This document shows, piece after piece, positions 1,615-25,719 of a DNA stretch of 32,000 bases. A program made the position numbers and the translations under genes. The notes under the pieces are model-generated. The model was not told the origin of the DNA. It ran no database searches and saw nothing but the letters and a program-made list of their open reading frames with translations. The DNA is from Candidatus Hermodarchaeota archaeon (GTDB taxonomy: Archaea; Asgardarchaeota; Heimdallarchaeia; Hodarchaeales; Hodarchaeaceae), in contig JBHLKY010000010.1 in the NCBI GenBank assembly GCA_048886185.1, forward strand, positions 78,526-110,525, written 5' to 3'. How positions within the stretch are numbered: position 1 is the stretch's first letter; every line of letters starts with the position of its first letter.

Positions 1615-2844
1615 ATGGATAATGAAAATTTGGATAGTTTATTCCCAGAGGAAAAGACGGAAAAAACCTCAACAGAACCAATTTTAGTGACCGAATTTGA
1701 TCCCGAACGTCGTGAGTTAGCAATTGCTTATACGCGTACTTCTCGTCGTTACAGTGTTCGATTAATGATTATCTCTTTCATAATCTCTCTATGTGTTCTT
1801 CTTACAAGAATTTCTGTATTCTTTCAAAACTTACTCAAGGAATTCACCCTATCGGATCCTTTCATTCTCACTGGTATTTTTTTCATTATTGGTTTTCTAA
1901 TAGTAAACGTTGCAGAGCTACCTGTATCTTTTTACCTACACTCTAGATTGTCCCGTAAATATGGTTTATCTAAATTAACAAACAAGAAGTGGTTTTGGCG
2001 TTATGTAAAAGGTAATTTTTTAAGTTTTATAATTGGTTTTCCTCTGTTTGAAGGATTCTATTGGATATTGAGAACATTTCCAAATTCTTGGTGGATATGG
2101 GCAACATTGATACTGACTGTGTTTTCTATTATTCTTTCCAATCTTATACCCATAATTTTATTACCTCGCTTTTATCAATTTGACCCATTAGAAGATTTTA
2201 ATCCCGATTTAGCAGCCGAACTTTCAGATATGACCCAAAAGATTGGTATTAAAACAACTGACGCGTTCATTTGGCGTGTAGGGGAGGTAGCAACAATTTC
2301 AAATGCAGCCCTCTTAGGTCTTGGGAATACCCGAAGAATCATTATCGCTGATACTATGCTAGGTAAATACACCAATAATGAAATCAAATGGATTCTAGCT
2401 CATGAAATCGGCCATTTCAAGCATCATGATTTTTGGAAAAGAATTATTCTAGCAAGTATCACAACTTTTCTTATATTCCTTCTCACCCATCTAACTTTTT
2501 CTCCTGTTGCAGATTTCTTCGGGTACTCATTAGTAATTGGAGATGTTAGTGGTATTCCTGCTCTCGGTCTATGTTTTTGGTTTTTCTCTTTCATAATTGA
2601 GATACCCTCTCTTTATTACTCCAGGAGACAAGAAACAGCAACAGATGACTTTGCTTCTTCAATTATTCCTGACCCCATTACAACGAAAAGCCTGTTTATT
2701 AAAATGGCGGACCAAAACCTCTCGGATATTGATCCACCTTGGTGGGAAAAAGTGTTCTTTATGTCTCACCCATCGATTATTGATCGAATCAAGCGTATGG
2801 AAAAAAAGTCGAGAACTCACAATCAATTCAACTCCTTGATTTAA
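1615..2844 (+). CDS. M48 family zinc metalloprotease, Ste24/CAAX-protease type, multi-pass membrane
   Basis: HEIGH zinc motif, NAALLGLGNTRRIIIADT segment, RRQETATDDFA third-ligand region, C-terminal SHPSIIDRI, several TM helices. Confidence 0.92.
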   Translation: MDNENLDSLFPEEKTEKTSTEPILVTEFDPERRELAIAYTRTSRRYSVRLMIISFIISLCVLLTRISVFFQNLLKEFTLSDPFILTGIFFIIGFLIVNVAELPVSFYLHSRLSRKYGLSKLTNKKWFWRYVKGNFLSFIIGFPLFEGFYWILRTFPNSWWIWATLILTVFSIILSNLIPIILLPRFYQFDPLEDFNPDLAAELSDMTQKIGIKTTDAFIWRVGEVATISNAALLGLGNTRRIIIADTMLGKYTNNEIKWILAHEIGHFKHHDFWKRIILASITTFLIFLLTHLTFSPVADFFGYSLVIGDVSGIPALGLCFWFFSFIIEIPSLYYSRRQETATDDFASSIIPDPITTKSLFIKMADQNLSDIDPPWWEKVFFMSHPSIIDRIKRMEKKSRTHNQFNSLI

Positions 2845-4750: not shown

Positions 4751-5497
4751 TTACCAGTATAGTTCCTTTGCAGGAATAAATTTCTGGGTATAATCCTCAA
4801 CAATTTTTCCATCTGATAATCGAATTACCCGATCACCTAGTGGGCAAATTGCTTCATTATGCGTAACAATGATTACTGTGCGGTTTAGTTTCTTCCCAGT
4901 CATGGCTTCCATTATTTCTAAGACTTGTCTACCTATCTTAAAGTCCAAATTTCCTGTAGGTTCATCAGCTAAAAGTATCTCAGGTTCTTTTGCTAGTGCT
5001 CTAGCAATAGCAACCCTTTGTTGCTCACCACCGCTTAATTGGGCTGGAAAATGATTAATTCGATCGTATAAACCAACTCTATTTAAGTACTCGATAGCAG
5101 TATTACGAATCACTTTTGAATCAAAAGACATTTCATCATTTTTTCCTGTTTTCACACCAACTAGTTCTAATGCATATTCAACGTTTTCTATAGCTGTTAG
5201 ACGAGAAATAAGGTTAAAAAATTGGAATACAACACCCACTTTTCTTCTTCGATAAATTGTTAGCCACTTATCTGATAATGTTGAAACATTAATCTTTCCA
5301 ACTTTTACCAGACCTGATGTCGGAATATCTAATCCTCCAATCATGTTAAGAAGTGTTGTTTTACCAGCTCCAGATGGCCCAAAGATAACGACAAGTTCTC
5401 CGAGTTCTATATGTAGATTGATTCCGCTCAAAGCTGGGATCGTGGTTTCCCCTAATGAATAGTTTTTGTAAATATTCTCGAGGGTGATAAATGCCAA
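4751..5497 (-). CDS. ABC transporter ATP-binding protein, MacB/LolD/FtsE family
   Basis: Walker A GPSGAGKTT, Q-loop VFQFFNL, signature LSGGEQQRVAIARA, Walker B LLADEPTGNLD, H-loop VTHN. TTG start supported by AGGAGG upstream. Confidence 0.96.
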   Translation of the reverse strand: MAFITLENIYKNYSLGETTIPALSGINLHIELGELVVIFGPSGAGKTTLLNMIGGLDIPTSGLVKVGKINVSTLSDKWLTIYRRRKVGVVFQFFNLISRLTAIENVEYALELVGVKTGKNDEMSFDSKVIRNTAIEYLNRVGLYDRINHFPAQLSGGEQQRVAIARALAKEPEILLADEPTGNLDFKIGRQVLEIMEAMTGKKLNRTVIIVTHNEAICPLGDRVIRLSDGKIVEDYTQKFIPAKELYW

Positions 5498-5504
5498 TTC
5501 TTAA

Positions 5505-5510
5505 CCTCCT
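5505..5510 (-). promoter_or_regulatory. Shine-Dalgarno AGGAGG for the TTG start at 5497
   Basis: CCTCCT on + strand, 7 nt from the TTG, overlapping the permease stop codon. Confidence 0.6.
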
Positions 5511-8052
5511 AGATTACTCGTTCTTTTGTGGCCTCTGCGAGATTCAGATTCAATGCTCGCCTCAATGGGAAGAATTGAGCCACTAATACACCAATGAAAG
5601 TGAGGCCAAATGAAATTAGAATTGTTTCATTACTCATGAACAATTTTACTCTGAAGAATTCTAAATCTAATACAACCCGCATGAAGAACCATAACATGAT
5701 CCATCCTAAGATTAATCCCATAACAGTACCAATTAAAGTTATAACTAAATTCTCAACAGTTACATTGCGAATAAGACGTCTTCCCGGGGTTCCTATAGTA
5801 AGGAGTGTTGCAATCTCTCGTTGTTGTTCTTGTAAATTAATATAGATGGTGTTATATACAATCGAACATGAAAGGATTACAGCAAAAACTGCTACGATGT
5901 AAATGATGAAATAAATTAAATTAAGTAAATCTAAGAAATCACTGCTCTGTTCTTCCCTAGTAAAGATATTTCTTATGTTGTAACTAAATTTTCCATAAAT
6001 TTCCTCCCGAATTAATTCTAATCTCTCCTGTGTAGGATTATCTACCTTGATTAGTATAGTATTAGCAGGTTGGCCAAAGTCATCAAAATTACTTACTGTA
6101 ATTAGCTTATCCAATCCCATATATGCGACTAGTCCGTTGAATTCATCCACAATTCCACTGATCCGAAATGAAACATTAACCATTTCAAAATGGGCTCTTA
6201 ATGGAGCAGAGCTCACTAGTTTTGTAAGGCGGGGAATCTCAAGATTGACAAAATCCTTTTCCCACACTTTAAGTTTTTCTGCTACTGGCCTACTTAATAT
6301 AATTCCACTGGGATCCCATTTCCCCGCATCAAATTCGAATATATGTGCAACATACCCATTCAAATCTTTCATTCCGATTAATTGAACCTGCTTACCTATA
6401 TTTGATCTATTTGATGTAACTGTCGCACCTGAAAGAAGGTGGTAGGTTACATTTGTGACACCATCAAGGGTATTGATAGCTCTTGCGATTTCTGAAGCAT
6501 TGGGTGGAATTTCGGAGTAATCTATACGCAAATCCCAGTCTTCAGCTACTTCATATTGAAATGCTAAGGCATAAGCCATTGATTCCATCATTCCAAAGGT
6601 CATGGATATCAATGATACCGAAACGATAACCGCAAAAACAGAACTGAAGGTTCTTCGTTTACTACGAAAGAAATTCCTTAAAGGAATCTTGTAGCCAGTG
6701 ACTTTCAGGTGAATCCTAAACTTACTTAATATTTGTTCGACAAGGGGGACTCGTCCAGTTGTAATGTGCAGTGATGGATCATATCGAAGACTTTCTGCAG
6801 GAAGAGGTTGTATTGCTCCCCGAATAGGCAGATATCCTCCAATTAATCCCGTAAAAATGCCTAAGAATAATCCTACTATGAGGATAGGATATTCAATAGT
6901 GACCTTAGGCTTGAAAGGAATTGTAAGCATCTGTGTGTACATAGGGCCAAACCAATCTAGGAAAAATAATCCCAAAATCGACCCCAAGATAGTTCCAATG
7001 AGTGTTACAATCATCGCAATTCCAAGATATTGAAGAATGATGGTTCTTCGACTATATCCGAGTGCTTGGGCAACACCAATATCCTTTCTTTCTGCTACAA
7101 CCATTCTTCCCAATAACACATACAATCCGCCCATAGCCATCACAAGAATAATTAATGGCAAAACATATCCAAATTCCCTAGCTTCTTCAATATCTAATTT
7201 GAGAACATAATAAGCAGGTTGTTTATCTCGATCTATGGGGTCACTTAATTTCAAATCATGGGTATCTTCAAGGAATGTCTTCAAATCCTCTGCTACCTGT
7301 TCTCGTTGGCGAGTAAAGAGATCAGGTTCTAGAAGTACAGAAATTTCATTTACACGTCTTGGAACATTAAGTAATCTTTGAGCAACTCTTAATGGTATAT
7401 ATATAACACCAAAACGACGTGGACTAGGCATAATATCTGCATACGATCCCATATTTATCAGATACTCTGGTGTACCAAGTGTTCCCAGAATTTCAAAAGG
7501 AACATTATTATCTCCCACTCCAATGAATTCCTGCTGTTCTAGCTTCCAATACGTTGCTAGATGCGTCTCGACAAGGCAAACATTTCGGTACTGGCTTATT
7601 TCCGAAAATGGGTCTCCATTAAGTATTTTAAATCCATTTACATTTGGCTGTGGGCGATAATTCCCAGCTTCATCAACAATACTGTATGCAACTATCCGAC
7701 CGTTTTGACGAGTACCTCGGATTTCAAATACTGTATCATAAATGATCCTTAATTCATAAGCTATTACTTTATTTCCTTCTTTTTTGTTCATAAATTCATC
7801 CATGTATTTTGTTAGATTATTATAATCTATCCAAGCATCTTCTCCTGTATCCCCTGGATTAGCTGTTTGCATAGTGAAACTTGCCATGTTATGATCAGTA
7901 AAAGCCTGGTTATATGTGCGGTTCATAACCACAAATGCAGTTATCATCCCATTAAATGAGGTTATCCCTATGGCTATTACTAGTGCAATAGTGAAGAAAC
8001 GAATTTTATGAGCTTTTAACGCGCGAAATATATTTTTAGTTGTTTTAGCCAT
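5509..8052 (-). CDS. FtsX/MacB-like ABC permease with two repeats (type VII ABC)
   Basis: Two units of TM, large extracytoplasmic domain, then 3 TM. Both have the conserved ERKDIGVAQALGY and QQREIATLLTIGT motifs. Confidence 0.93.
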   Translation of the reverse strand: MAKTTKNIFRALKAHKIRFFTIALVIAIGITSFNGMITAFVVMNRTYNQAFTDHNMASFTMQTANPGDTGEDAWIDYNNLTKYMDEFMNKKEGNKVIAYELRIIYDTVFEIRGTRQNGRIVAYSIVDEAGNYRPQPNVNGFKILNGDPFSEISQYRNVCLVETHLATYWKLEQQEFIGVGDNNVPFEILGTLGTPEYLINMGSYADIMPSPRRFGVIYIPLRVAQRLLNVPRRVNEISVLLEPDLFTRQREQVAEDLKTFLEDTHDLKLSDPIDRDKQPAYYVLKLDIEEAREFGYVLPLIILVMAMGGLYVLLGRMVVAERKDIGVAQALGYSRRTIILQYLGIAMIVTLIGTILGSILGLFFLDWFGPMYTQMLTIPFKPKVTIEYPILIVGLFLGIFTGLIGGYLPIRGAIQPLPAESLRYDPSLHITTGRVPLVEQILSKFRIHLKVTGYKIPLRNFFRSKRRTFSSVFAVIVSVSLISMTFGMMESMAYALAFQYEVAEDWDLRIDYSEIPPNASEIARAINTLDGVTNVTYHLLSGATVTSNRSNIGKQVQLIGMKDLNGYVAHIFEFDAGKWDPSGIILSRPVAEKLKVWEKDFVNLEIPRLTKLVSSAPLRAHFEMVNVSFRISGIVDEFNGLVAYMGLDKLITVSNFDDFGQPANTILIKVDNPTQERLELIREEIYGKFSYNIRNIFTREEQSSDFLDLLNLIYFIIYIVAVFAVILSCSIVYNTIYINLQEQQREIATLLTIGTPGRRLIRNVTVENLVITLIGTVMGLILGWIMLWFFMRVVLDLEFFRVKLFMSNETILISFGLTFIGVLVAQFFPLRRALNLNLAEATKERVI

Positions 8053-8079: not shown

Positions 8080-9771
8080 TTACCAATTAATCTCCATTGC
8101 GGGTGTTGGTATTTGAGATTCAATAGAATCTACTTTACCAGAACGTAATCGGATCACTGTGTTTCCAATTAAAGAGATTTTCTGATTGTGAGTAACAAGT
8201 ATCACTAGGATGTTTGGTCTATCTTTAATTATTTCTTGGATAACAGCTAGAACTTTTTTTCCTTCATTTACCGATAGTTCTCCAGTTGGTTCATCACATA
8301 ACAATATATCAGGCTCTTTGGCAAAAGCGCGAGCAGCAGCTACCTGTTGTTGTTCTCCTCCCGAAAGTTGAGATGGAAACAAAAATCGTTTTTCCCATAA
8401 TCCAACCTTTTTGATATATTCCTCTGTTTTAGTTTTTACCTCAATTCTAGACATTTTTCTTTTTTTAGAGAGTTCTACAGCGTACTCAATATTCTCAAAG
8501 GCATTTAACACAGGTATAAGATTGAAGAATTGGAAAATAAATCCACACTTCTCACGACGGTACTTGGTAAGCTTCCTTTTGTTTAATTTTGTTACAGTGA
8601 TATTTCCTACCTCAATTGTTCCCTTACACCTGTCAATTCCACCGATGACGTTTAATAGAGTGGTTTTACCCGAGCCCGATGGGCCTAATACCACGATTAT
8701 TTGGCCACTAGCTAATTCTAATGATACATTTTTCAAAGCGTATATTGTTTGATTTCCTAATTTATATGCTCTCTCAACATTTGTCAACCTAACAAAGCCA
8801 TCAGCTTTACTAACATCTTGATAAGTTGTTATCATATGTGGGGAGGTCTCCTTTTGCTCTGTAATATACAACATCTTCTTTAATAAAGGTGTGGAAAGCG
8901 TTGTGATTACATCTCGGCCTGGGTTCGTCACCGTGGTTAGAAGAATCTCATTCCGTACGTACACATCATATATTTTATCTAGTGAGGCAATAGATTCCAT
9001 AATTTCTAATGCTTCATCATTATCAATGAGGCAGCTCATTTTAAAAGCGTTGGAATGAGGTCCGAGAATCCTCGCGAGAGTTTGGAAGGATTTCTCTTCA
9101 GGAAAAGCTGAGAAAAATTGACGAGTGGTTTCTTTGGTCCCAATCTCGCAGAATTTGTTTAGGGGTCTCTTTAGGTGGTCTGGTAGAGGGAAAAATGATA
9201 AAACACCAAGATTTTCTACCTTTTCTATAATTTTTTCAATCGCTAAATAGTCCTCTTCAACGACAAAGAACATTCTTGAAGTTACCTGTTCAAGACTCAC
9301 CTGATAATCATGTGCAAAACCTGCTAGGAGAACAAGAGCAGATCGAACTCCTTCAGCAGTTTTAGGAAGTAGAAAAAGTGATTGAGAAGGAAAATTAATC
9401 ACCCTATTGAAACAATCCAACGCTGAAAAATTGGCCTCAACCTTTCCCTGTAAATATTCTTCAATTAAATTTAAAATAACCCGTAAAACTGGTAACACTC
9501 GTTTTGTCGGAACATTTAGAGGTACTAACACTATTGCTACCAGTGACGAAAATTCAGGCTTTTGAGACGTTAAAAAAACCATATTATGCATGTTAAATTT
9601 AATAAAGTTAATCTTTTCACCTTTCAGAATCTTTTGGGAAAAAAGAGTCAAGATATTGGCAAGGGTGCGAGAAATTTCAGGGTATTTTGTTAGCTTTCCT
9701 ATTCCAGAATAAAAAATAACTTTATCTTGATTGACAACCAGAATATCTGAAGGGGAATGTCGATAGCTCAT
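8080..9771 (-). CDS. ABC ATPase (MacB/LolD family) fused to a ~320-aa N-terminal region beginning with a longin-like domain
   Basis: C-terminal NBD: GPSGSGKTT, FQFFNL, LSGGEQQQVAAARA, LLCDEPTG, VTHN. N-terminal aa ~8-125 show a longin-like pattern (b-b-a-b-b-b-a-a); this domain call is by eye. Confidence 0.85.
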   Translation of the reverse strand: MSYRHSPSDILVVNQDKVIFYSGIGKLTKYPEISRTLANILTLFSQKILKGEKINFIKFNMHNMVFLTSQKPEFSSLVAIVLVPLNVPTKRVLPVLRVILNLIEEYLQGKVEANFSALDCFNRVINFPSQSLFLLPKTAEGVRSALVLLAGFAHDYQVSLEQVTSRMFFVVEEDYLAIEKIIEKVENLGVLSFFPLPDHLKRPLNKFCEIGTKETTRQFFSAFPEEKSFQTLARILGPHSNAFKMSCLIDNDEALEIMESIASLDKIYDVYVRNEILLTTVTNPGRDVITTLSTPLLKKMLYITEQKETSPHMITTYQDVSKADGFVRLTNVERAYKLGNQTIYALKNVSLELASGQIIVVLGPSGSGKTTLLNVIGGIDRCKGTIEVGNITVTKLNKRKLTKYRREKCGFIFQFFNLIPVLNAFENIEYAVELSKKRKMSRIEVKTKTEEYIKKVGLWEKRFLFPSQLSGGEQQQVAAARAFAKEPDILLCDEPTGELSVNEGKKVLAVIQEIIKDRPNILVILVTHNQKISLIGNTVIRLRSGKVDSIESQIPTPAMEINW

Positions 9772-9792: not shown

Positions 9793-11796
9793 TCAAGAAG
9801 ATTTTCTAGACTCTTTTTTTCTGTAGAAAACAATTGTAATTGTAATCAGAGACAACAGTGTGGTAATTACTTCAAATGATGGAATCTGACCACCCCCAGG
9901 AGTTATTGATTTTACACTGGTTATTTCACCTGTATTTACTAGTGCAAAATGATGGACATAACCTTCATAAGTAGCTTGCCAGCTGTAAGAAATTTCATTA
10001 TAAACAGTTGTTATATTTAGCCACTGATTCGATTCAACATCCCACCGTTTCCACTGATATTCGGGGAACTCACTAGTTTTTGATGACAATTGTAACGTAA
10101 GAGTGATGTAAATAATTTCCTCAGGTTTCTCACAATTGAACTCGATCACATATTCCATTTTATCCGTTCTTGTGGGGAATGAATCTTCTGGTATGACTGA
10201 AAGGTTTATGTATTGATCAATCGATGAAGTCAAAGTTAGAAAAAACCAAAGGTGTCCCGAGGAATTGATAATATTAATTGTTTTTGGAATGTACGCTTTT
10301 ATTTCCCAGTTCCAATTAAATGCACTTACATAAATTGAAAATGTTAATTTTGTACGATTTATATTTTGGGCTTCATCTACGGCGTAAATAATTAATTCAT
10401 GAGTTCCATTCTCAAGTTCTGGAAGCTTTTCTTCATAAGATTTGTTAAATTCTGCGAAGTAACTTTTTATTACCACATTGTTTAATTCAAAAGTAAGATT
10501 ACAGTCTTCTGATGGTCTTATCTGAAACCTGACCGATCCTTTAAGAACTGTATTATTATTTAAGTTTTGGAGTGAGAAGGATGGTGGAGAGTTATCTACA
10601 CTAAAAATGAATCTCTTACTTGCCCAGTTAACACCATTATTAATGTAGACATTTAATTCGTATTCTGTCTCAATATTTGGAATAATAATGGGCGTATTCT
10701 CCGTTATTGTTGTATTTCCATTTCCGTTCCAATTAAAGATTATTGAGCCATTTCCATTCGAAATTACCAACATTATTTGACTCGATCCTTGGATGTGACT
10801 ATTATTCGTAAAATCTTTAAGAAAAATCCCTGGGATCGTATAATCAGTGAAGTACAAAAAGTAAAAATGGCTAAAAATACCTATATTGTCCTTTACAATT
10901 ATATACAACTCATGGGAACCATTTTCAGATGGAATTATCGTTTGTAACGTAATAGAAGTTTGATTTTCAAAAGAATCCCATTGATAATTGATAAAATCTA
11001 TACCATAAGGAGAAAAGAACTGAATACTAATTATTGAACCATTTGAGATATATGAATTGTTTTTAGGTGAGATTTGTCCAATAGTAGGACCGTTATATTC
11101 AGGTGAGAGTTCAGCAATTTCAGCAGTAGTTAAATTATACCAAAATATCGAGAAGTATCTAAAATAAAGGCTTAGAAACAGGCCATCTTTCGAATACCAG
11201 TATGTCATTGGATCAAGATTTGCTTCAAATGTGATATTAACCTTCCAAGCATTGAAACTCCCCACACCATCTAATGATATTGTTTCCTCATTAATTACAG
11301 TCATGTTTAATTGACCGAATGAATATTCATGTCCAATGAAGAATCCTGATGTATTAATCCAGAAATCAAATGAAGGCTGATAAAATCCAAACCAATTATA
11401 ATAATTATCTGCAATAAATGTGTGATTGAGACTAGATCGCGTCACTGAGGTGCTGAAACCATTAGGAAATTCTTTACCTTCCCAATCCAAGCTTCGTGAA
11501 TAATCACAGGCAATCTGCCAATGAGATGCATTTATTACTTGAATAGAGGCATTATAAAAGTAGTTGGGGAAACCATCTTGAAATTCTGTGACTGAGAAGT
11601 TAGATCTTGGTAACAGGGTTTTATTGGGATTAATTATCTGCTGATGCTTAAGAAAAGTTTTGCTCAAAAAAGAATGATCATTTAGACCTGTTAATGGTGT
11701 TTGAACGGTTGATTCAGAAAAATTATTGCTGTTTGGTAGAATAAATATAAAGATTAGAGATAACGTAATAAAATAAGACTTGTAATGCTTTTCCAT
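9793..11796 (-). CDS. Secreted, C-terminally anchored surface glycoprotein with Ig-like repeats and a CTERM-like sorting signal
   Basis: N-terminal hydrophobic signal, about 25 N-x-S/T sequons counted, Ig-like segments (..TDYTIP, ..VDNSPP, YAVDEAQN), and a C-terminal IPSFE-TM-RKK tail. Confidence 0.8.
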   Translation of the reverse strand: MEKHYKSYFITLSLIFIFILPNSNNFSESTVQTPLTGLNDHSFLSKTFLKHQQIINPNKTLLPRSNFSVTEFQDGFPNYFYNASIQVINASHWQIACDYSRSLDWEGKEFPNGFSTSVTRSSLNHTFIADNYYNWFGFYQPSFDFWINTSGFFIGHEYSFGQLNMTVINEETISLDGVGSFNAWKVNITFEANLDPMTYWYSKDGLFLSLYFRYFSIFWYNLTTAEIAELSPEYNGPTIGQISPKNNSYISNGSIISIQFFSPYGIDFINYQWDSFENQTSITLQTIIPSENGSHELYIIVKDNIGIFSHFYFLYFTDYTIPGIFLKDFTNNSHIQGSSQIMLVISNGNGSIIFNWNGNGNTTITENTPIIIPNIETEYELNVYINNGVNWASKRFIFSVDNSPPSFSLQNLNNNTVLKGSVRFQIRPSEDCNLTFELNNVVIKSYFAEFNKSYEEKLPELENGTHELIIYAVDEAQNINRTKLTFSIYVSAFNWNWEIKAYIPKTINIINSSGHLWFFLTLTSSIDQYINLSVIPEDSFPTRTDKMEYVIEFNCEKPEEIIYITLTLQLSSKTSEFPEYQWKRWDVESNQWLNITTVYNEISYSWQATYEGYVHHFALVNTGEITSVKSITPGGGQIPSFEVITTLLSLITITIVFYRKKESRKSS

Positions 11797-17479: not shown

Positions 17480-18121
17480 TTAAGAAGACCTTCTTCGCTC
17501 AATCTCTTCTTCTACTGCTCGTAAAGTATCTTGAATCATAAGAATACTATCTTCAAGTTGTCTTTTTTCACTTTCAAGATCAGGTAAACTAGCGTTTTTC
17601 AACAATTCAGAGAGTTCTTCATCAGAGAGCTCTAATTTAGATTTTATCATCTGTAAATGAGGAGCTGGTGGTTGATTGCGGCGTGGGTGCATCCTAAACG
17701 ATTTTGCAAATTCTATTCGTGCTTGTTCTAACTTTTGCGCTACTTTCAAACCATAATCCGTTAGCTGGTAATTTTTCGTGAATCGTTTCCTTTCTTTATT
17801 AGACTGGTCTTCAATTTCTGTAATTATTCCCTCCTCTTCGAATTGATTCAGTATTGGATAAATAGATGCTGTTGTAGGCTTCCATCTTTCATCTGTGATT
17901 TCTTCAATTGCTTTAGCAATGTGGTATCCATGGATCTTTTTTCGAAAAGGGCTTTCTTCTGGTTTTATATCGTTTTTATATTCCCTTTCGTGACGTAATA
18001 AATGTAAAATGAAAAATCGTAAGCTACCTCGATGAAAACCTTGGATCCACTTCTCCACAAGCTGATCAGAAATTTCTTTGTCTTCTTTTTCAGATTCCAA
18101 ATAATTGAACCTTCTATTCAA
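17480..18121 (-). CDS. PadR family transcriptional regulator with C-terminal coiled coil
   Basis: HGYHIAKAIE...PTTASIYPILNQFEEEGII...RKRFTKNYQLTDYG winged-HTH pattern. Confidence 0.9.
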   Translation of the reverse strand: MNRRFNYLESEKEDKEISDQLVEKWIQGFHRGSLRFFILHLLRHEREYKNDIKPEESPFRKKIHGYHIAKAIEEITDERWKPTTASIYPILNQFEEEGIITEIEDQSNKERKRFTKNYQLTDYGLKVAQKLEQARIEFAKSFRMHPRRNQPPAPHLQMIKSKLELSDEELSELLKNASLPDLESEKRQLEDSILMIQDTLRAVEEEIERRRSS

Positions 18122-18252: not shown

Positions 18253-20058
18253 ATGCAAGTATCCCAAACAGCTTCAATCGATGCACAACAGAGAAACTAC
18301 ACTCCATTGCCAACAAAAAAGTATCGTTCTGCGACTCATTGGTATTTAAGTTTTTTCTGGCGAAGTCCAGGTCTTGTTTTGTTAAGTTTAGTAATTTCGT
18401 TGATAAGCGTATTTTTAACACTTTTTCCTAGTATTCTTCTTGGACAAGCGTTTAGTATTCTCCAATCTGAAGGATTTTCACAAACATTCTTACTTGTTTG
18501 TCTAGCGATAATAGTTACTGCTATCATAAGTTTTGGAATAACATTTATCGCTAACTATTCGTGGACTGTAGCCGCTTTTAGATACGAGAGAGACATTCGA
18601 CAAGAGTTTTTTGATATCATTCAAGAGCATTCCATGACATTTCATGATGAGATTGATAGTAGTAGCCTGTTATCCATGGCAATGAATGAAATAAGTCAAA
18701 TGAGAATGGGTGTTAACCCTAGTATGCGAATGCTCTCTAGTTCCTTCTTAAGTATGATATTTATTACGTCTATCTTCTTAGTTTTTAATCCTACTTATTT
18801 TCTAATTGCGATAATTGGATTTCCACTATATCTTCTCTTAGTGATTCGATATTCTAAAGTGATTGGGCCAATTCGTGAGGAGCTTGCATCTAGATTAGCG
18901 ATTGTGACACGGGATTCTCAAGAAATCTTTCGTGGTATTGAAGTTGTTCGAAGTTTCAACCGAGAAAATCATGAGAATAAGCGATTTGCGACTACTAGTA
19001 ATAATTACGCTGATATAGTAACAACTGAAGGCCGTTTGTCTGCTTTCTTTTGGCCTGCATTAGTATTGATCGCTCTAACCGCTTTAATCTTTGGGTTGGG
19101 ATTAATCAATTTAGCTGATAATCCAGCTTCCATTGATACATTTACCTCATCTGTTTCCATGTTGTTGTCACTTCAATTCCTTAATTTCATGCTGCCAATG
19201 GCAATTCTAAATATTCGTGCTGGAAAAGCTAATGCAGACCGCATCTGGTCCAAAATGACTTGGCAAGATCCAGTCCCTGACACAGCTCAGGAAGGTGTCG
19301 TTCCGGGTTGGAGTGGAGATATTGTTTTTGATGAGGTTAGTTTTAGCTATGGAAGCTCATCAAAACTTGCATTAAAGAATATTAATATCACAATTCCTTC
19401 TGGTTCGAGAGTTGCTGTAATTGGAGGTCCAGGATCCGGGAAATCAACCTTTCTTAAGTTACTTCTTCGGTTATATGACCCAACAGAAGGACAGATTAAG
19501 ATCAATGGTACGCCTTTAACAGAAATCCCTGCTAAAGAAATCCGCAAAGGAGTAACTATGGTTGAACAGGAAGTATTTCTCTTTTCCGCTTCAGTAAGAG
19601 AGAATATTGCTTTTGCCAATCCTAAAGCTTCATACGAAGAAATTATCTCTGCAGCGGAAAAGGCCCAAGCACTTAAATTCATTGAGAAACTTCCTAAGGG
19701 ATTTGAGACGAGGATTGGAGAACGTGGATCAAAACTTTCAGGCGGACAAAGACAGCGTGTTGCAATTGCGCGAGCTATCCTAGCAGATCCGAAGGTATTA
19801 TTGCTTGACGATTCTGCTTCCGCTATTGACTCCAAGACTGAGCTACTTCTTCGTAGAGCACTTGATAAACTGATGGAGGATCGAACTTCTATCGTTGTAA
19901 CACAACGATTAAGAACACTTATTGAATCTGATTTTATAGTCCTATTTGATAAAGGAGAGATTTGTGCCTATGGATCCCATGAAGAAATGCTTAGGTCATG
20001 CCCTCAATATCAAACGATATTTAAAGCACTTCCAGAGGTTATAGGAGGTCGACTCTAA
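18253..20058 (+). CDS. Heterodimeric ABC exporter, subunit with degenerate NBD (TM287/TmrB/LmrC-like)
   Basis: Six-TM TMD plus NBD. GGPGSGKST, LSGGQ, Walker B LLLDDSAS (D replaces the catalytic E), switch TQRL (Q replaces H). Confidence 0.94.
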   Translation: MQVSQTASIDAQQRNYTPLPTKKYRSATHWYLSFFWRSPGLVLLSLVISLISVFLTLFPSILLGQAFSILQSEGFSQTFLLVCLAIIVTAIISFGITFIANYSWTVAAFRYERDIRQEFFDIIQEHSMTFHDEIDSSSLLSMAMNEISQMRMGVNPSMRMLSSSFLSMIFITSIFLVFNPTYFLIAIIGFPLYLLLVIRYSKVIGPIREELASRLAIVTRDSQEIFRGIEVVRSFNRENHENKRFATTSNNYADIVTTEGRLSAFFWPALVLIALTALIFGLGLINLADNPASIDTFTSSVSMLLSLQFLNFMLPMAILNIRAGKANADRIWSKMTWQDPVPDTAQEGVVPGWSGDIVFDEVSFSYGSSSKLALKNINITIPSGSRVAVIGGPGSGKSTFLKLLLRLYDPTEGQIKINGTPLTEIPAKEIRKGVTMVEQEVFLFSASVRENIAFANPKASYEEIISAAEKAQALKFIEKLPKGFETRIGERGSKLSGGQRQRVAIARAILADPKVLLLDDSASAIDSKTELLLRRALDKLMEDRTSIVVTQRLRTLIESDFIVLFDKGEICAYGSHEEMLRSCPQYQTIFKALPEVIGGRL

Positions 20059-22091
20059 TGGCACATCCTCGAGGTCGTGGTCCTCATGGGCTCTTTGTGG
20101 ATACAAAATATAAGAAAGTACGATCCACAAAACAATTACTTAAAATGTTATGGGGCTACCTAGCTCCTTTTAAAGGATTTCTTATACTTTCAGGACTCTT
20201 GATATTAGCTTATGCCATTGGATCAATTATTTCTCCACTAATAATAAGTGAAGGCTTGGATGCAGCTGTTGCTACTGATAAACCTGATGTCGAATTTATT
20301 ATTCTCTTATTCGCCATTTTTTTAGCTTTATCTCTTATTATCTGGTTCATTAATGCCTTAAACACTTATATTCTAGCTCGATTGAGGGCTAAGATGCTCC
20401 ATAATGTCCGAATTGATGTTTTTGAGCGTTTGGTCTCCGCTGATATGTCCTTTCATAAACAAGAACAGAGTGGTAATGTAACCAGTCGTGTGACTAGTGA
20501 TACTGATGAATTGGCTGTTGGAATCACAGTGGTTACTAATGCGAGTTCCCAGCTTCTTTTGACTTTTGGTACCTTCTTTCTTCTTTTAGCTACTAGTTGG
20601 ATTATAACTGGGATTGCATTACTAGCAATACCTGCAGCAGCGCTATTAGCTACTATTCTTGGCACACTTGGCCGAAAAATCATGTACCGTGTCCGAAAAT
20701 CCTATGGTGAAGTGTCAGGACAAATGGCAGAGAGTCTTGCCGGAGTGTCAATTGCAAAATCGTTCAATCGTGAGATATGGTCTTCTTCTATCCTTTATGA
20801 GCTTAATCAAAGAACTTATCAATATTTCAAGCAAATGGGTGCCATTTTTAATTTCATGTTCCCTGCAGTATCTGTGGTTTCTACAACTTTAGTTGCATTG
20901 ACTCTTATTGTAGGCGGATGGCTGCCAGAGTCAGCGATCACTCTTGGATCAATTTATTTAGGAACAATTCTTGTCCAGCGGTTTTTGGATCCCATACTTC
21001 ACTTAGCAATGTATTATCCCCAACTTCAGTCCTCATTAGCAGCTATGGACAGAGTAGCGGACGTTCTAGAGCAAAAACCCCAAGTAACTGACACATTAAA
21101 TGCGAAAATCCTAACTTTAGAAGATACAAGTGTCACTTTGGATAATGTTTCTTATGAATATCTTAAAGGAACCCCTGTTCTCCAAGAAGTCACTTTCAAG
21201 GTTGAGGAAGGAGAAAAGATCGCGATTGTCGGGCATACAGGAGCTGGCAAAACAACATTGGCAGCTCTTCTCACTCGTTTTTATGATCCAACCGAGGGTC
21301 GGATTTTAATTGGCGATCAAGACTTACGTGACATCAAGCTGGAAAGTTTGCATACATCCATTGGATTAATTCCCCAAGAACCGTACCTCTTCGCAGATAC
21401 AGTTCTTGAGAATATTCGTTATGGTAATCCAGAGGTGAGTGATCGTGAAATCTTTGAATTATGTAAACTTATAGGAGCTGATGACTTCATCGAAGCATTA
21501 CCAAGTGGATATCAGACATTGTTACAGGAAAGTGGTAAGGGTTTAAGTTCAGGACAAAGGCAGATGATTACGATTGCTCGGGCAATGCTTGCTGATCCAA
21601 AGATTCTCGTACTTGATGAGGCCACATCCCGTCTTGATGCCTATTCTGAGAGTTTGGTTCAGCAGGCGCAAAAAGCTTTATTTCAAGGGAGGACAACTTT
21701 TGTTATTGCTCACCGGTTAACAACCATTCGGGATGTAGATCGGTTAGCAGTCTTTCAGAAAGGAAAATTAGTTGAACTTGGCACACATGAAGAGCTTCTT
21801 GCCAAAAATGGAGTTTACGCTGAATTATACCATACTTATTATGCACATCAAGGATTAGAAGAGTTGGCTGAAGTTTATAAAGCTCCTCCAGCTAAACTTA
21901 CTTCTATGCCTGGAGTTATGCCTCCAGCTATTGAGAAAATGATACAAGCTCATGGTATGAATCCTGATCGCATAAATGCCATGATGAAAGAAAGGGGTAT
22001 AAATCCTGAAGAAATGCACAATATAATGAGACAAAAAGGATTTACTCCTGAAAAAATGCGTGAACGGATGAAAGAGAAAGGTTCCGATTAA
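20058..22091 (+). CDS. Heterodimeric ABC exporter, subunit with consensus NBD (TM288/TmrA/LmrD-like) and a Met-rich C-terminal tail
   Basis: GHTGAGKTT, LSSGQ, VLDEATS, IAHRL. TAATG overlap with the partner gene. Confidence 0.94.
   Translation: MAHPRGRGPHGLFVDTKYKKVRSTKQLLKMLWGYLAPFKGFLILSGLLILAYAIGSIISPLIISEGLDAAVATDKPDVEFIILLFAIFLALSLIIWFINALNTYILARLRAKMLHNVRIDVFERLVSADMSFHKQEQSGNVTSRVTSDTDELAVGITVVTNASSQLLLTFGTFFLLLATSWIITGIALLAIPAAALLATILGTLGRKIMYRVRKSYGEVSGQMAESLAGVSIAKSFNREIWSSSILYELNQRTYQYFKQMGAIFNFMFPAVSVVSTTLVALTLIVGGWLPESAITLGSIYLGTILVQRFLDPILHLAMYYPQLQSSLAAMDRVADVLEQKPQVTDTLNAKILTLEDTSVTLDNVSYEYLKGTPVLQEVTFKVEEGEKIAIVGHTGAGKTTLAALLTRFYDPTEGRILIGDQDLRDIKLESLHTSIGLIPQEPYLFADTVLENIRYGNPEVSDREIFELCKLIGADDFIEALPSGYQTLLQESGKGLSSGQRQMITIARAMLADPKILVLDEATSRLDAYSESLVQQAQKALFQGRTTFVIAHRLTTIRDVDRLAVFQKGKLVELGTHEELLAKNGVYAELYHTYYAHQGLEELAEVYKAPPAKLTSMPGVMPPAIEKMIQAHGMNPDRINAMMKERGINPEEMHNIMRQKGFTPEKMRERMKEKGSD
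21954..22079 (+). repeat. Three in-frame 42-nt (14-aa) degenerate repeats
   Basis: GMNPDRINAMMKER / GINPEEMHNIMRQK / GFTPEKMRERMKEK, with exact 42-nt periodicity of the Gly codons (21954, 21996, 22038, 22080). Confidence 0.8.
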
Positions 22092-25086: not shown

Positions 25087-25719
25087 ATGATATTCGATTA
25101 TACAACTGTTGGACTTTTTTTTGCAATTAATCTGACAATTTATTTTTTAATTAGTCTTCCTTTGGATTACTTCACTTATTTTCGAAAAAATTCTGAGCGT
25201 AAAAGAAGGAATTCTCAAGATCTTGACATCACTTTTACAATGATTATAACTTTTCTTGTTTCTGCATATATGTGGCTGATATTTCTTTTGGTTCCTCTAG
25301 ATGTTCTGGTTGGTTTGAATATTTTCAATGATCAATTATTATCAGCTTTTGAACCATTTGCCACGGTGATCCAAGTTTTAGGTTTTGGAATAGTAATCAT
25401 TGCCACATTAATTGCTTCTTGGGGCCGTATATCAAGGGGAAACCGTGCTTTCTCCTGGGGGATTCCTAAAAAGCTAGAAAAGGAAGGGATGTATCGTTAT
25501 ATTAGACATCCTCTTTATGCCTCCTACTGCTATTATTTCTTGGGTTTTTCAATGATTCTCCAACATATATTGATTCTTCCCCTTTTATTTGGTATTTATG
25601 GTTATTATGACCTTTCAAATTATGAAGAGTCAATTTTAGTTGATCATTTCGGAGAAGAATATCTGCAATACAGAGAAACAGTTGGCCGGTTCTTTCCTCG
25701 ATTGCAAAAAAAGGATTAA
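25087..25719 (+). CDS. Isoprenylcysteine carboxyl methyltransferase / PEMT family membrane protein
   Basis: LEKEGMYRYIRHPLYASY and EESILVDHFGEEYLQYRETVGRFFP motifs. Confidence 0.9.
   Translation: MIFDYTTVGLFFAINLTIYFLISLPLDYFTYFRKNSERKRRNSQDLDITFTMIITFLVSAYMWLIFLLVPLDVLVGLNIFNDQLLSAFEPFATVIQVLGFGIVIIATLIASWGRISRGNRAFSWGIPKKLEKEGMYRYIRHPLYASYCYYFLGFSMILQHILILPLLFGIYGYYDLSNYEESILVDHFGEEYLQYRETVGRFFPRLQKKD

Follow-up and report, generated by a model that had tools for sequence, protein, structure and literature searches.

Type VII ATP-binding cassette (ABC) systems, among them MacB, LolCDE, FtsEX, and YbbA-YbbP, pass cytoplasmic ATP hydrolysis on to extracytoplasmic domains, and Cdc45 is a catalytically inactive scaffold with a DHH fold. 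Longin and roadblock domains are protein interaction platforms that mostly act as dimers (PMC3747258, PMC3521125), and both longin fusions and DENN proteins are already known in general from Asgard archaea (bioRxiv 10.1101/2020.10.19.343400; PMC12290439). Here, we describe a gene that unites such components in one reading frame. It lies within a stretch of 32,000 nucleotides (nt), hereafter the window, from the “Candidatus Hermodarchaeota” archaeon assembly GCA_048886185.1 (contig JBHLKY010000010.1, positions 78,526 to 110,525; order Hodarchaeales), and it occupies window positions 8080 to 9771 on the minus strand. The encoded protein of 563 amino acids (aa), P0001, consists of an N-terminal module (first a longin domain, then a domain that we read as an inactivated DHH domain), a short linker, and a MacB/FtsEX-type nucleotide-binding domain (NBD). 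An earlier note on this DNA, made from its letters alone, had seen one uninterrupted frame here and knew of no description of such a fusion; the translated open reading frame (ORF) contains zero internal stops, and full-text literature searches returned no description of a longin-ABC ATPase fusion or of a longin-DHH combination. The joining of longin and inactivated DHH domains to a MacB/FtsEX-type ATPase is a new domain combination.

The locus resembles type VII ABC systems in the models that its NBD matches and in a permease with FtsX and MacB core domains that is duplicated, as in YbbP. Unlike those systems, it carries a 312-aa longin plus DHH-like module on the N terminus of one NBD, its permease is flanked by two different NBD genes, one of which has an altered D-loop, and its operon is headed by an archaeal CTERM-anchored glycoprotein. 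Compared with longin and roadblock platforms (Mon1-Ccz1, Fuzzy-Inturned LD1, MglB, LAMTOR, Asgard roadblocks, and VAMP7/Sec22), P0001 is without the GP motif and the arginine finger of the longins of GTPase-activating proteins (GAPs). The tri-longin subunits of Rab guanine nucleotide exchange factors (RabGEFs), i.e., Mon1, Ccz1, Fuzzy, Inturned, and HPS1/4, have three longin domains, whereas P0001 has one, and its second domain is a β-α-β domain with DHH matches.

A genuine fusion under purifying selection

A word-indexed protein search with residues 1 to 325 of P0001 recovered 28 proteins. Among these, 20 fused database proteins of 565 to 605 aa combine the N-terminal module with the ABC domain at 56 to 73% identity (P0005 to P0024 minus two split forms). 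The homologs are annotated as Hodarchaeales/Promethearchaeota, and their database name is merely “ABC transporter ATP-binding protein.” The earlier note had proposed a search of Asgard proteomes for the same architecture. When 400 genomes of the phylum were searched with a profile, the fused frame, free of stops and 567 to 593 aa long, turned up in seven further members of the window’s genus, including three single-contig assemblies.

Contigs from single sequencing runs were compared with the window as well. Those assembled per run from three runs of one study, which may be where this DNA came from, cover positions 8300 to 9300 with zero differences, and a contig from an unrelated estuary run, 95 to 97% identical, spans positions 8403 to 8820 without insertions or deletions (indels), positions 8844 to 8911 being uncovered by the contigs of that estuary run (X5). 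Among eight fused orthologs, the ratio of nonsynonymous to synonymous substitution rates (dN/dS) is 0.125 for the longin part, 0.109 for the second domain, 0.61 for the linker, and 0.061 for the NBD, values that are rough, with synonymous sites near saturation. Ratios of 0.11 to 0.13 across the module imply that the protein has kept it under purifying selection as a functional part.

Some relatives encode the module and the NBD in adjacent but different frames of the same operon (L007:1153-2957, L017:677-2481, and L014:1161-2932, from two or three assemblies). The split ORFs are 320 to 343 aa (module) and 266 to 276 aa (NBD) long and overlap by 15 to 22 nt, and the switch in frame falls exactly in the linker, which shows, as Rosetta-stone evidence, that the module can stand apart and yet belongs with this NBD. 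A sequencing frameshift, a programmed shift, or true fission of the gene could each account for the split forms. They are also what might suggest that two genes were joined by misassembly or by the loss of a stop codon, a possibility the earlier note had raised, and that the N-terminal part is a nonfunctional, decaying relic. We give that reading almost no credence: eight genomes carry the fused form, single-contig assemblies included, the independent per-run contigs show zero indels, and purifying selection has strongly conserved the module. The fusion is a genuine gene and not an assembly artifact.

The ABC domain itself is intact, as the earlier note had judged for residues ~325 to 563. It spans residues 327 to 563 (positions 8083 to 8793, minus strand) and is assigned to the MacB/LolD/FtsE type by Pfam and NCBIfam matches and motifs; residues 327 to 547 match ABC_tran (PF00005) at an E value of 2.9e-29. 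The best NCBIfam models are of the DevA/LolD/FtsE/MacB type (E values of 1e-46 to 1e-49), with scores of 157 to 167 bits that lie below all of the equivalog cutoffs (265 to 966), and P0001 is therefore an ortholog of no named system. Walker A (GPSGSGKTT, residues 363 to 371), the signature (LSGGEQQ), Walker B (ILLCDEP, which includes the catalytic Glu), and an H-loop (VTHN) are all present, and these motifs are intact in 19 of the 19 fused orthologs checked (P0001 and 18 others). The D-loop of the fused NBD reads T-G-E-L-S, a noncanonical form conserved in the family, versus T-G-N-L-D in P0004, the second ATPase of the operon, and in most fused orthologs a Q replaces the R after the signature (LSGGEQQQ). 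As read from the sequences, these differences suggest a functionally asymmetric NBD heterodimer.

Between the module and the NBD lies a flexible linker of 14 residues (aa 313 to 326; positions 8794 to 8835, minus strand), recognized by its dN/dS, by a mean identity of 43%, and by predicted local distance difference test (pLDDT) scores of 43 to 47 at residues ~312 to 325 of the AlphaFold2 model; it contains the split point of the relatives described above.

Two folds in the N-terminal module

The longin domain comprises residues 8 to 110 (positions 9442 to 9750, minus strand). In the AlphaFold2 model of the module, made with a family alignment of 30 sequences (mean pLDDT of 87.4; predicted template modeling [pTM] score of 0.85), DSSP assigns strands at residues 10 to 14 and 17 to 22, a helix at 31 to 47, strands at 56 to 58, 62 to 68, and 78 to 84, and a helix at 93 to 107, followed by a further helix at 115 to 126. 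This order, β-β-α-β-β-β-α(-α), is that of longin domains, with the N-terminal helix of roadblock domains absent, and residues 8 to 110 are structurally similar to solved longin/roadblock domains. The earlier note had recognized a longin topology in residues 8 to 125, and the elements it listed coincide with those of the model. GAF/PAS, helix-turn-helix, and degenerate NBD folds had been considered for the N-terminal domain, and none of them is among the fold matches.

With the full module, Foldseek ranks Mon1/Ccz1 and Fuzzy/Inturned on top at weak E values of about 1e-3, and against the PDB it yields zero matches at E values of ≤0.001, for the full module and the isolated second domain alike. 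In the ESM Atlas, the full module retrieves Mon1, Fuzzy, and Ccz1/Inturned clusters with template modeling (TM) scores of 0.40 to 0.46 over 176 to 203 aligned residues; the isolated second domain does not retrieve these clusters, and the module has one longin domain only. At the sequence level, residues 1 to 325 of P0001 match no Pfam or NCBIfam family (the sole trace is a subthreshold MC4 match), a PDB sequence-profile search with the module found nothing, and no Pfam longin model is passed by the module family, the sole trace being Fuz_longin_1 at an E value of 0.15 in 1 of the 30 members of the family alignment (A1; identities of 23 to 73%).

The second domain, residues 111 to 312 (positions 8836 to 9441, minus strand), folds confidently on its own (pLDDT of 92.2; pTM of 0.90). 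Its core consists of a strand at residues 132 to 136, a helix at 139 to 155, a strand at 167 to 170, a helix at 175 to 184, and strands at 190 to 192 and 207 to 209, after which come five helices between residues 228 and 309. In isolation, it matches DHH domains (RecJ, Cdc45/GAN, and NrnA) in two independent structure libraries. Most of the top rows from the ESM Atlas are DHH/RecJ/Cdc45 clusters (TM scores of 0.60 to 0.66 over 164 to 185 residues; root mean square deviation of 3.6 to 4.5 Å), and the best Foldseek rows, which are nonsignificant, are also Cdc45 and RecJ. The likeness to DHH phosphoesterases and Cdc45 (RecJ, GAN, NrnA, and PAP phosphatase) extends in fold across the whole DHH domain and includes the position of the motif I Gly, but the catalytic equipment differs. 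In alignment A1, the module family lacks the DHH motifs I to IV (DxD, D, DHH, and D), the DHHA1 domain with its GGGH motif is absent from P0001, where the NBD occupies the positions past residue 326, and the Pfam DHH model, when applied to the genome of the window, retrieves six genuine DHH genes and not P0001. Only G141 and D155 are invariant within residues 111 to 312 in alignment A1; P128, G141, D155, G237, A242, and E256 are invariant or nearly so. When alignments A1, A2, and A3 were compared with the six genuine DHH proteins of the genome by hhalign, probabilities were 1 to 2%, which is nonsignificant. The top local alignment, likewise nonsignificant, places LFLLPKTAEGVRSAL over the strand and loop of DHH motif I (..HFDADGITAA), such that G141 corresponds to the motif I Gly, the first Asp is replaced, and motif I reads T-A-E-G. 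From the modeled fold, we read residues 111 to 312 as an inactivated DHH domain, in that respect comparable to Cdc45.

The earlier note had described an α/β segment behind the longin domain as loosely recalling the core of DENN proteins. The α/β segment is there, but its reading as DENN is unsupported, and the second half of the N-terminal region matches DHH domains instead; the earlier note had itself named a different fold of this region as the outcome that would refute it, and on that count this half of its interpretation fails. The order of longin, α/β, and all-α parts is indeed the gross layout of the DENN module (PMC3521125), as found in DENND1B, folliculin, SMCR8/C9orf72, and the Asgard DENN proteins of Liu et al.; unlike in those proteins, the α/β and helical part of P0001 matches DHH domains in structure searches, and no profile similarity to DENN is detectable. 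DENN, folliculin, SMCR8, and C9orf72 chains are absent from the top 50 rows of VIA-align and Foldseek and from the ESM Atlas rows, which is an absence from top lists and not proof of a different fold. A single weak DENND10 row appears with the full-length model in Foldseek (E value of 3.8e-3, probability of 0.57, TM score of 0.20). The Pfam DENN, uDENN, dDENN, and folliculin models match none of the 30 family members at E values of ≤10, searches of the genome with PF02141 and PF16692 do not retrieve P0001, and the hhalign probability between the N-module profile and the folliculin-like protein of the same genome (P0058) is 0.2%. DENN membership of residues 111 to 312 is not supported; because the gross domain order is common to both, we grade it as unsupported rather than excluded. 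As a caution for similar cases, a longin, α/β, and helical layout is insufficient for calling a DENN module, the second part here being read as a DHH domain of Cdc45/RecJ type that has lost its activity.

P0058 is a folliculin/SMCR8-type longin plus DENN protein of 365 aa (L004:1069-2166, minus strand, equivalent to G000 contig C5, ~52846-53943), with a subthreshold match to PF02141 (E value of 0.045) and, near its N terminus, the sequence R-R-K-G-P (arginine finger plus GP), a motif of the type described for GAP longins (PMC12290439).

Parent family, operon, and neighborhood

Across 1.84 billion representatives, an exhaustive search with HMMER returned only ~20 related clusters, most of which are proteins of 590 to 675 aa that bear the module at their N termini. 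These proteins (P0052, P0025, and P0028 to P0050, ~615 to 675 aa, from Hodarchaeales) share with P0001 the same two N-terminal domains and their invariant residues, at 41 to 57% identity in the nearer members and 23 to 30% in the distant ones, but in place of the ABC NBD they have a disordered linker and a conserved C-terminal domain of ~230 aa that ends in G-I-G-F-S-R-W, with the terminal S-R-W invariant. The long proteins match no Pfam domain. Their C-terminal domain (P0052:405-637, alignment A3; C-terminal consensus SEICGIGFSRW) has no Pfam or PDB sequence matches, and its ESM Atlas model is poor (pLDDT of 0.37), with SIS-like rows at TM scores of ~0.45.

Among the 400 genomes sampled from the phylum, the module family occurs only in the order of the window. 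The long form is present in 22 of the 22 genomes of the window’s genus, its own included, and in both genomes of a sister family, whereas the ABC-linked copy occurs in ~10 of the 22. Every genome with an ABC-linked copy also has a full-length parent; that of the window’s genome, P0052 (637 aa, contig C6), is 41% identical to the module of P0001. A maximum-likelihood module tree, rooted at the midpoint only, unites all ABC-linked copies, whether fused or split, in one clade (support of 100/99) that is nested among the proteins with the C-terminal domain and is sister to P0025. A single nested clade indicates one recruitment of the N-terminal half of the parent into the ABC operon.

The gene for the parent lies outside any such operon and near genes for Rab-like and Arf-like GTPases, a gelsolin-like protein, and Sua5. 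In the window’s genome (L003:6338-11353, plus strand, equivalent to G000 contig C6, 206337-211352), P0052 is downstream of P0056 (a gelsolin-repeat protein), P0055 (a Ras-family GTPase; PF00071, E value of 1.5e-49), P0054 (Arf-like, 250 aa), and P0053 (Sua5). P0056 also contains a Pro/Thr/Ala-rich repeat linker. This gene order is conserved throughout the genus and in the lineage of P0025 (L053), and it recurs in the sister family, there with a gap of 3.6 kb; the contigs of the distant members P0033, P0039, and P0049, on which GTPase genes were not seen, are too short to include neighboring genes. Given the relatedness of these genomes and the unrelated gene in between, we treat this synteny as a lead only, not as evidence of interaction.

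P0001 is the second gene of a minus-strand operon of four genes (P0003, P0001, P0002, and P0004) separated by spacers of 21, 27, and 11 nt. The first gene, P0003 (positions 9793 to 11796, minus strand), encodes a secreted surface protein of 667 aa, judging from its translation, with a hydrophobic segment at the N terminus and numerous N-x-S/T sequons. Its C terminus resembles the Heimdall-CTERM (NF045529; E value of 7.6e-4 and 19.8 bits, with a cutoff of 24) and Loki-CTERM (E value of 0.044) sorting signals, both matches falling under the curated cutoffs. Taken with the G+C content of the window and the annotations of the P0001 homologs, this C terminus assigns the DNA to an Asgard archaeon. 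The third gene, P0002 (positions 5509 to 8052, minus strand; 847 aa), encodes a duplicated FtsX-type permease (2 × [MacB_PCD + FtsX]) that matches PF02687 (E value of 4.5e-30) and PF12704 (E value of 1.5e-15) in two stretches each and is identified as the membrane partner by these matches and its conserved position. The last, P0004 (positions 4751 to 5497, minus strand; 248 aa), is a plain MacB-type ABC ATPase with the canonical D-loop GNLD, assigned by Pfam/NCBIfam and conserved position, and presumably pairs with the fused NBD as a heterodimer. The order of surface protein, N-module, NBD, double permease, and second NBD is kept in every locus examined: the surface-protein gene precedes the module/NBD gene in each, and an FtsX-type permease with a MacB periplasmic core domain also neighbors the module/NBD in L005, L007, and L012 to L019.

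Elsewhere, the window (G+C content of 33 to 35%) contains an unrelated second ABC system on the plus strand, consisting of two half-transporter exporter genes (ABC_membrane plus ABC_tran; positions 18253 to 22091) adjoined by a gene for a PadR regulator (positions 17480 to 18121, minus strand), and the same pair of half-transporters is found in L005 near the operon orthologous to that of P0001. A Ste24-type CAAX prenyl protease (Peptidase_M48_N plus M48) is encoded at positions 1615 to 2844 (plus strand), and a PEMT/ICMT-like methyltransferase is encoded 22 kb from it at positions 25087 to 25719 (plus strand). In eukaryotes, CAAX protease and ICMT-type methyltransferase activities process prenylated small GTPases.

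Proposed role of the module

The sequences show a type VII-like ABC system whose two NBDs differ and are both catalytically competent; one of them bears the conserved, nonenzymatic two-domain module on its flexible tether. The N-terminal addition probably docks or regulates the transporter. Our best full explanation, toward which we lean without much firmness, is that the longin and dead-DHH module forms a docking or regulatory platform on a type VII-like ABC machine. P0001 would be one of two unlike ATPase subunits of a MacB/LolCDE/FtsEX-like machine whose double FtsX permease acts extracellularly, probably on or with the co-encoded CTERM-anchored surface glycoprotein, a candidate outside substrate or coworker. 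The 312-residue module, as a catalytically dead protein interaction unit on a 14-residue tether, was copied once from the N-terminal half of a ~620-aa parent and then set before an NBD gene, with which it is fused in most genomes while standing as a separate gene in some. There, it could link a cytoplasmic partner to the ATPase cycle of the one asymmetric NBD, as happens for FtsE-FtsX and its partners; candidate partners include whatever the parent binds, or the parent itself by longin-longin pairing. Because longins pair, dead DHH domains scaffold, and type VII ABC systems work on the outside, we infer that what docks is a cytoplasmic partner that controls or localizes the machine. Several points weigh against this explanation. 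Gene order is what links the transporter to the surface protein, and the confinement of the ABC-linked copy to about 10 of the 22 genomes of one genus means that its function is dispensable. The 32-kb window, moreover, is one in which no small GTPase, roadblock, or longin gene was found.

The absence of GTPase genes near the ABC operon bears equally on the proposal that the module is a DENN-type (longin plus cDENN plus dDENN) platform with GEF or GAP activity through which a Rab-like or Arf-like GTPase directly switches the ABC motor. This proposal can draw on the DENN-like order of domains, on the RabGEF subunits Mon1, Fuzzy, and Ccz1/Inturned as the nearest shapes to the full module, on the one weak DENND10 row, and on the gelsolin-like, Ras-family, and Arf-like genes beside the parent paralog; Asgard DENN/longin proteins beside Rab-like GTPases are also documented (bioRxiv 10.1101/2020.10.19.343400). 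The Pfam DENN and folliculin models, however, match 0 of the 30 members, the hhalign comparison with the folliculin-like protein of the genome is negative, and the GAP-longin motifs are missing from the module. The Sua5 gene stands between the parent and the GTPases, and the synteny is seen only among related genomes. We regard a DENN-type platform as improbable, and a small-GTPase coupling of the transporter appears doubtful to much the same degree. We see only a slim chance that a small GTPase of the Rab-like or Arf-like kind, or else the parent with its GTPase link, docks on the module. Cofolding of the N-module (A1, aa 1 to 312) with the Rab-like P0055 (A4) yielded no verdict (score of 0.00, below the mark, without controls), and we count it neither way.

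Two further readings concern the partner or ligand of the module. The ABC-linked module might pair through its longin domain with the full-length, P0052-type parent and so recruit the C-terminal domain of the latter, in the manner of Mon1-Ccz1 or FLCN-FNIP. Paralogous longin proteins typically heterodimerize (PMC3747258), the two proteins here are paralogs with both domains in common, and the parent is kept wherever the ABC-linked copy occurs; their genes, however, are on separate contigs (C10 and C6) and are not colocated, and we think such pairing unlikely. Still lower in our estimation is a role of the dead-DHH domain as a sensor of small molecules (nucleotide- or nanoRNA-like) and thereby an allosteric gate of the ATPase. 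According to the titles of the structure matches, pAp, c-di-AMP, and short oligonucleotides are ligands of DHH/DHHA1 enzymes, and six residues of the domain are invariant or nearly so; yet substrate recognition by DHH enzymes requires the DHHA1 domain and a metal site, and P0001 has neither DHHA1 nor any of the metal-binding Asp/His motifs.

Longin domains are eukaryotic-signature building blocks that have expanded in Asgard archaea, and their role in cells without endomembranes is a question in itself. In P0001, a longin platform is physically joined to an enzyme whose output, ATP hydrolysis, can be measured. Its reach is limited by a distribution that amounts to one genus, but the defined four-gene operon, the natural split and fused forms, and the parent in the same genome make the locus unusually amenable to the question of which partner an Asgard longin binds and whether a signal is transmitted. 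If a small GTPase, or the GTPase-linked parent, does dock on the module, then this would be an Asgard ABC machine that acts at the cell surface under direct small-GTPase control, and membrane machinery switched by GTPases would have a precedent among prokaryotes, one built on a longin platform independent of the DENN and tri-longin lineages.

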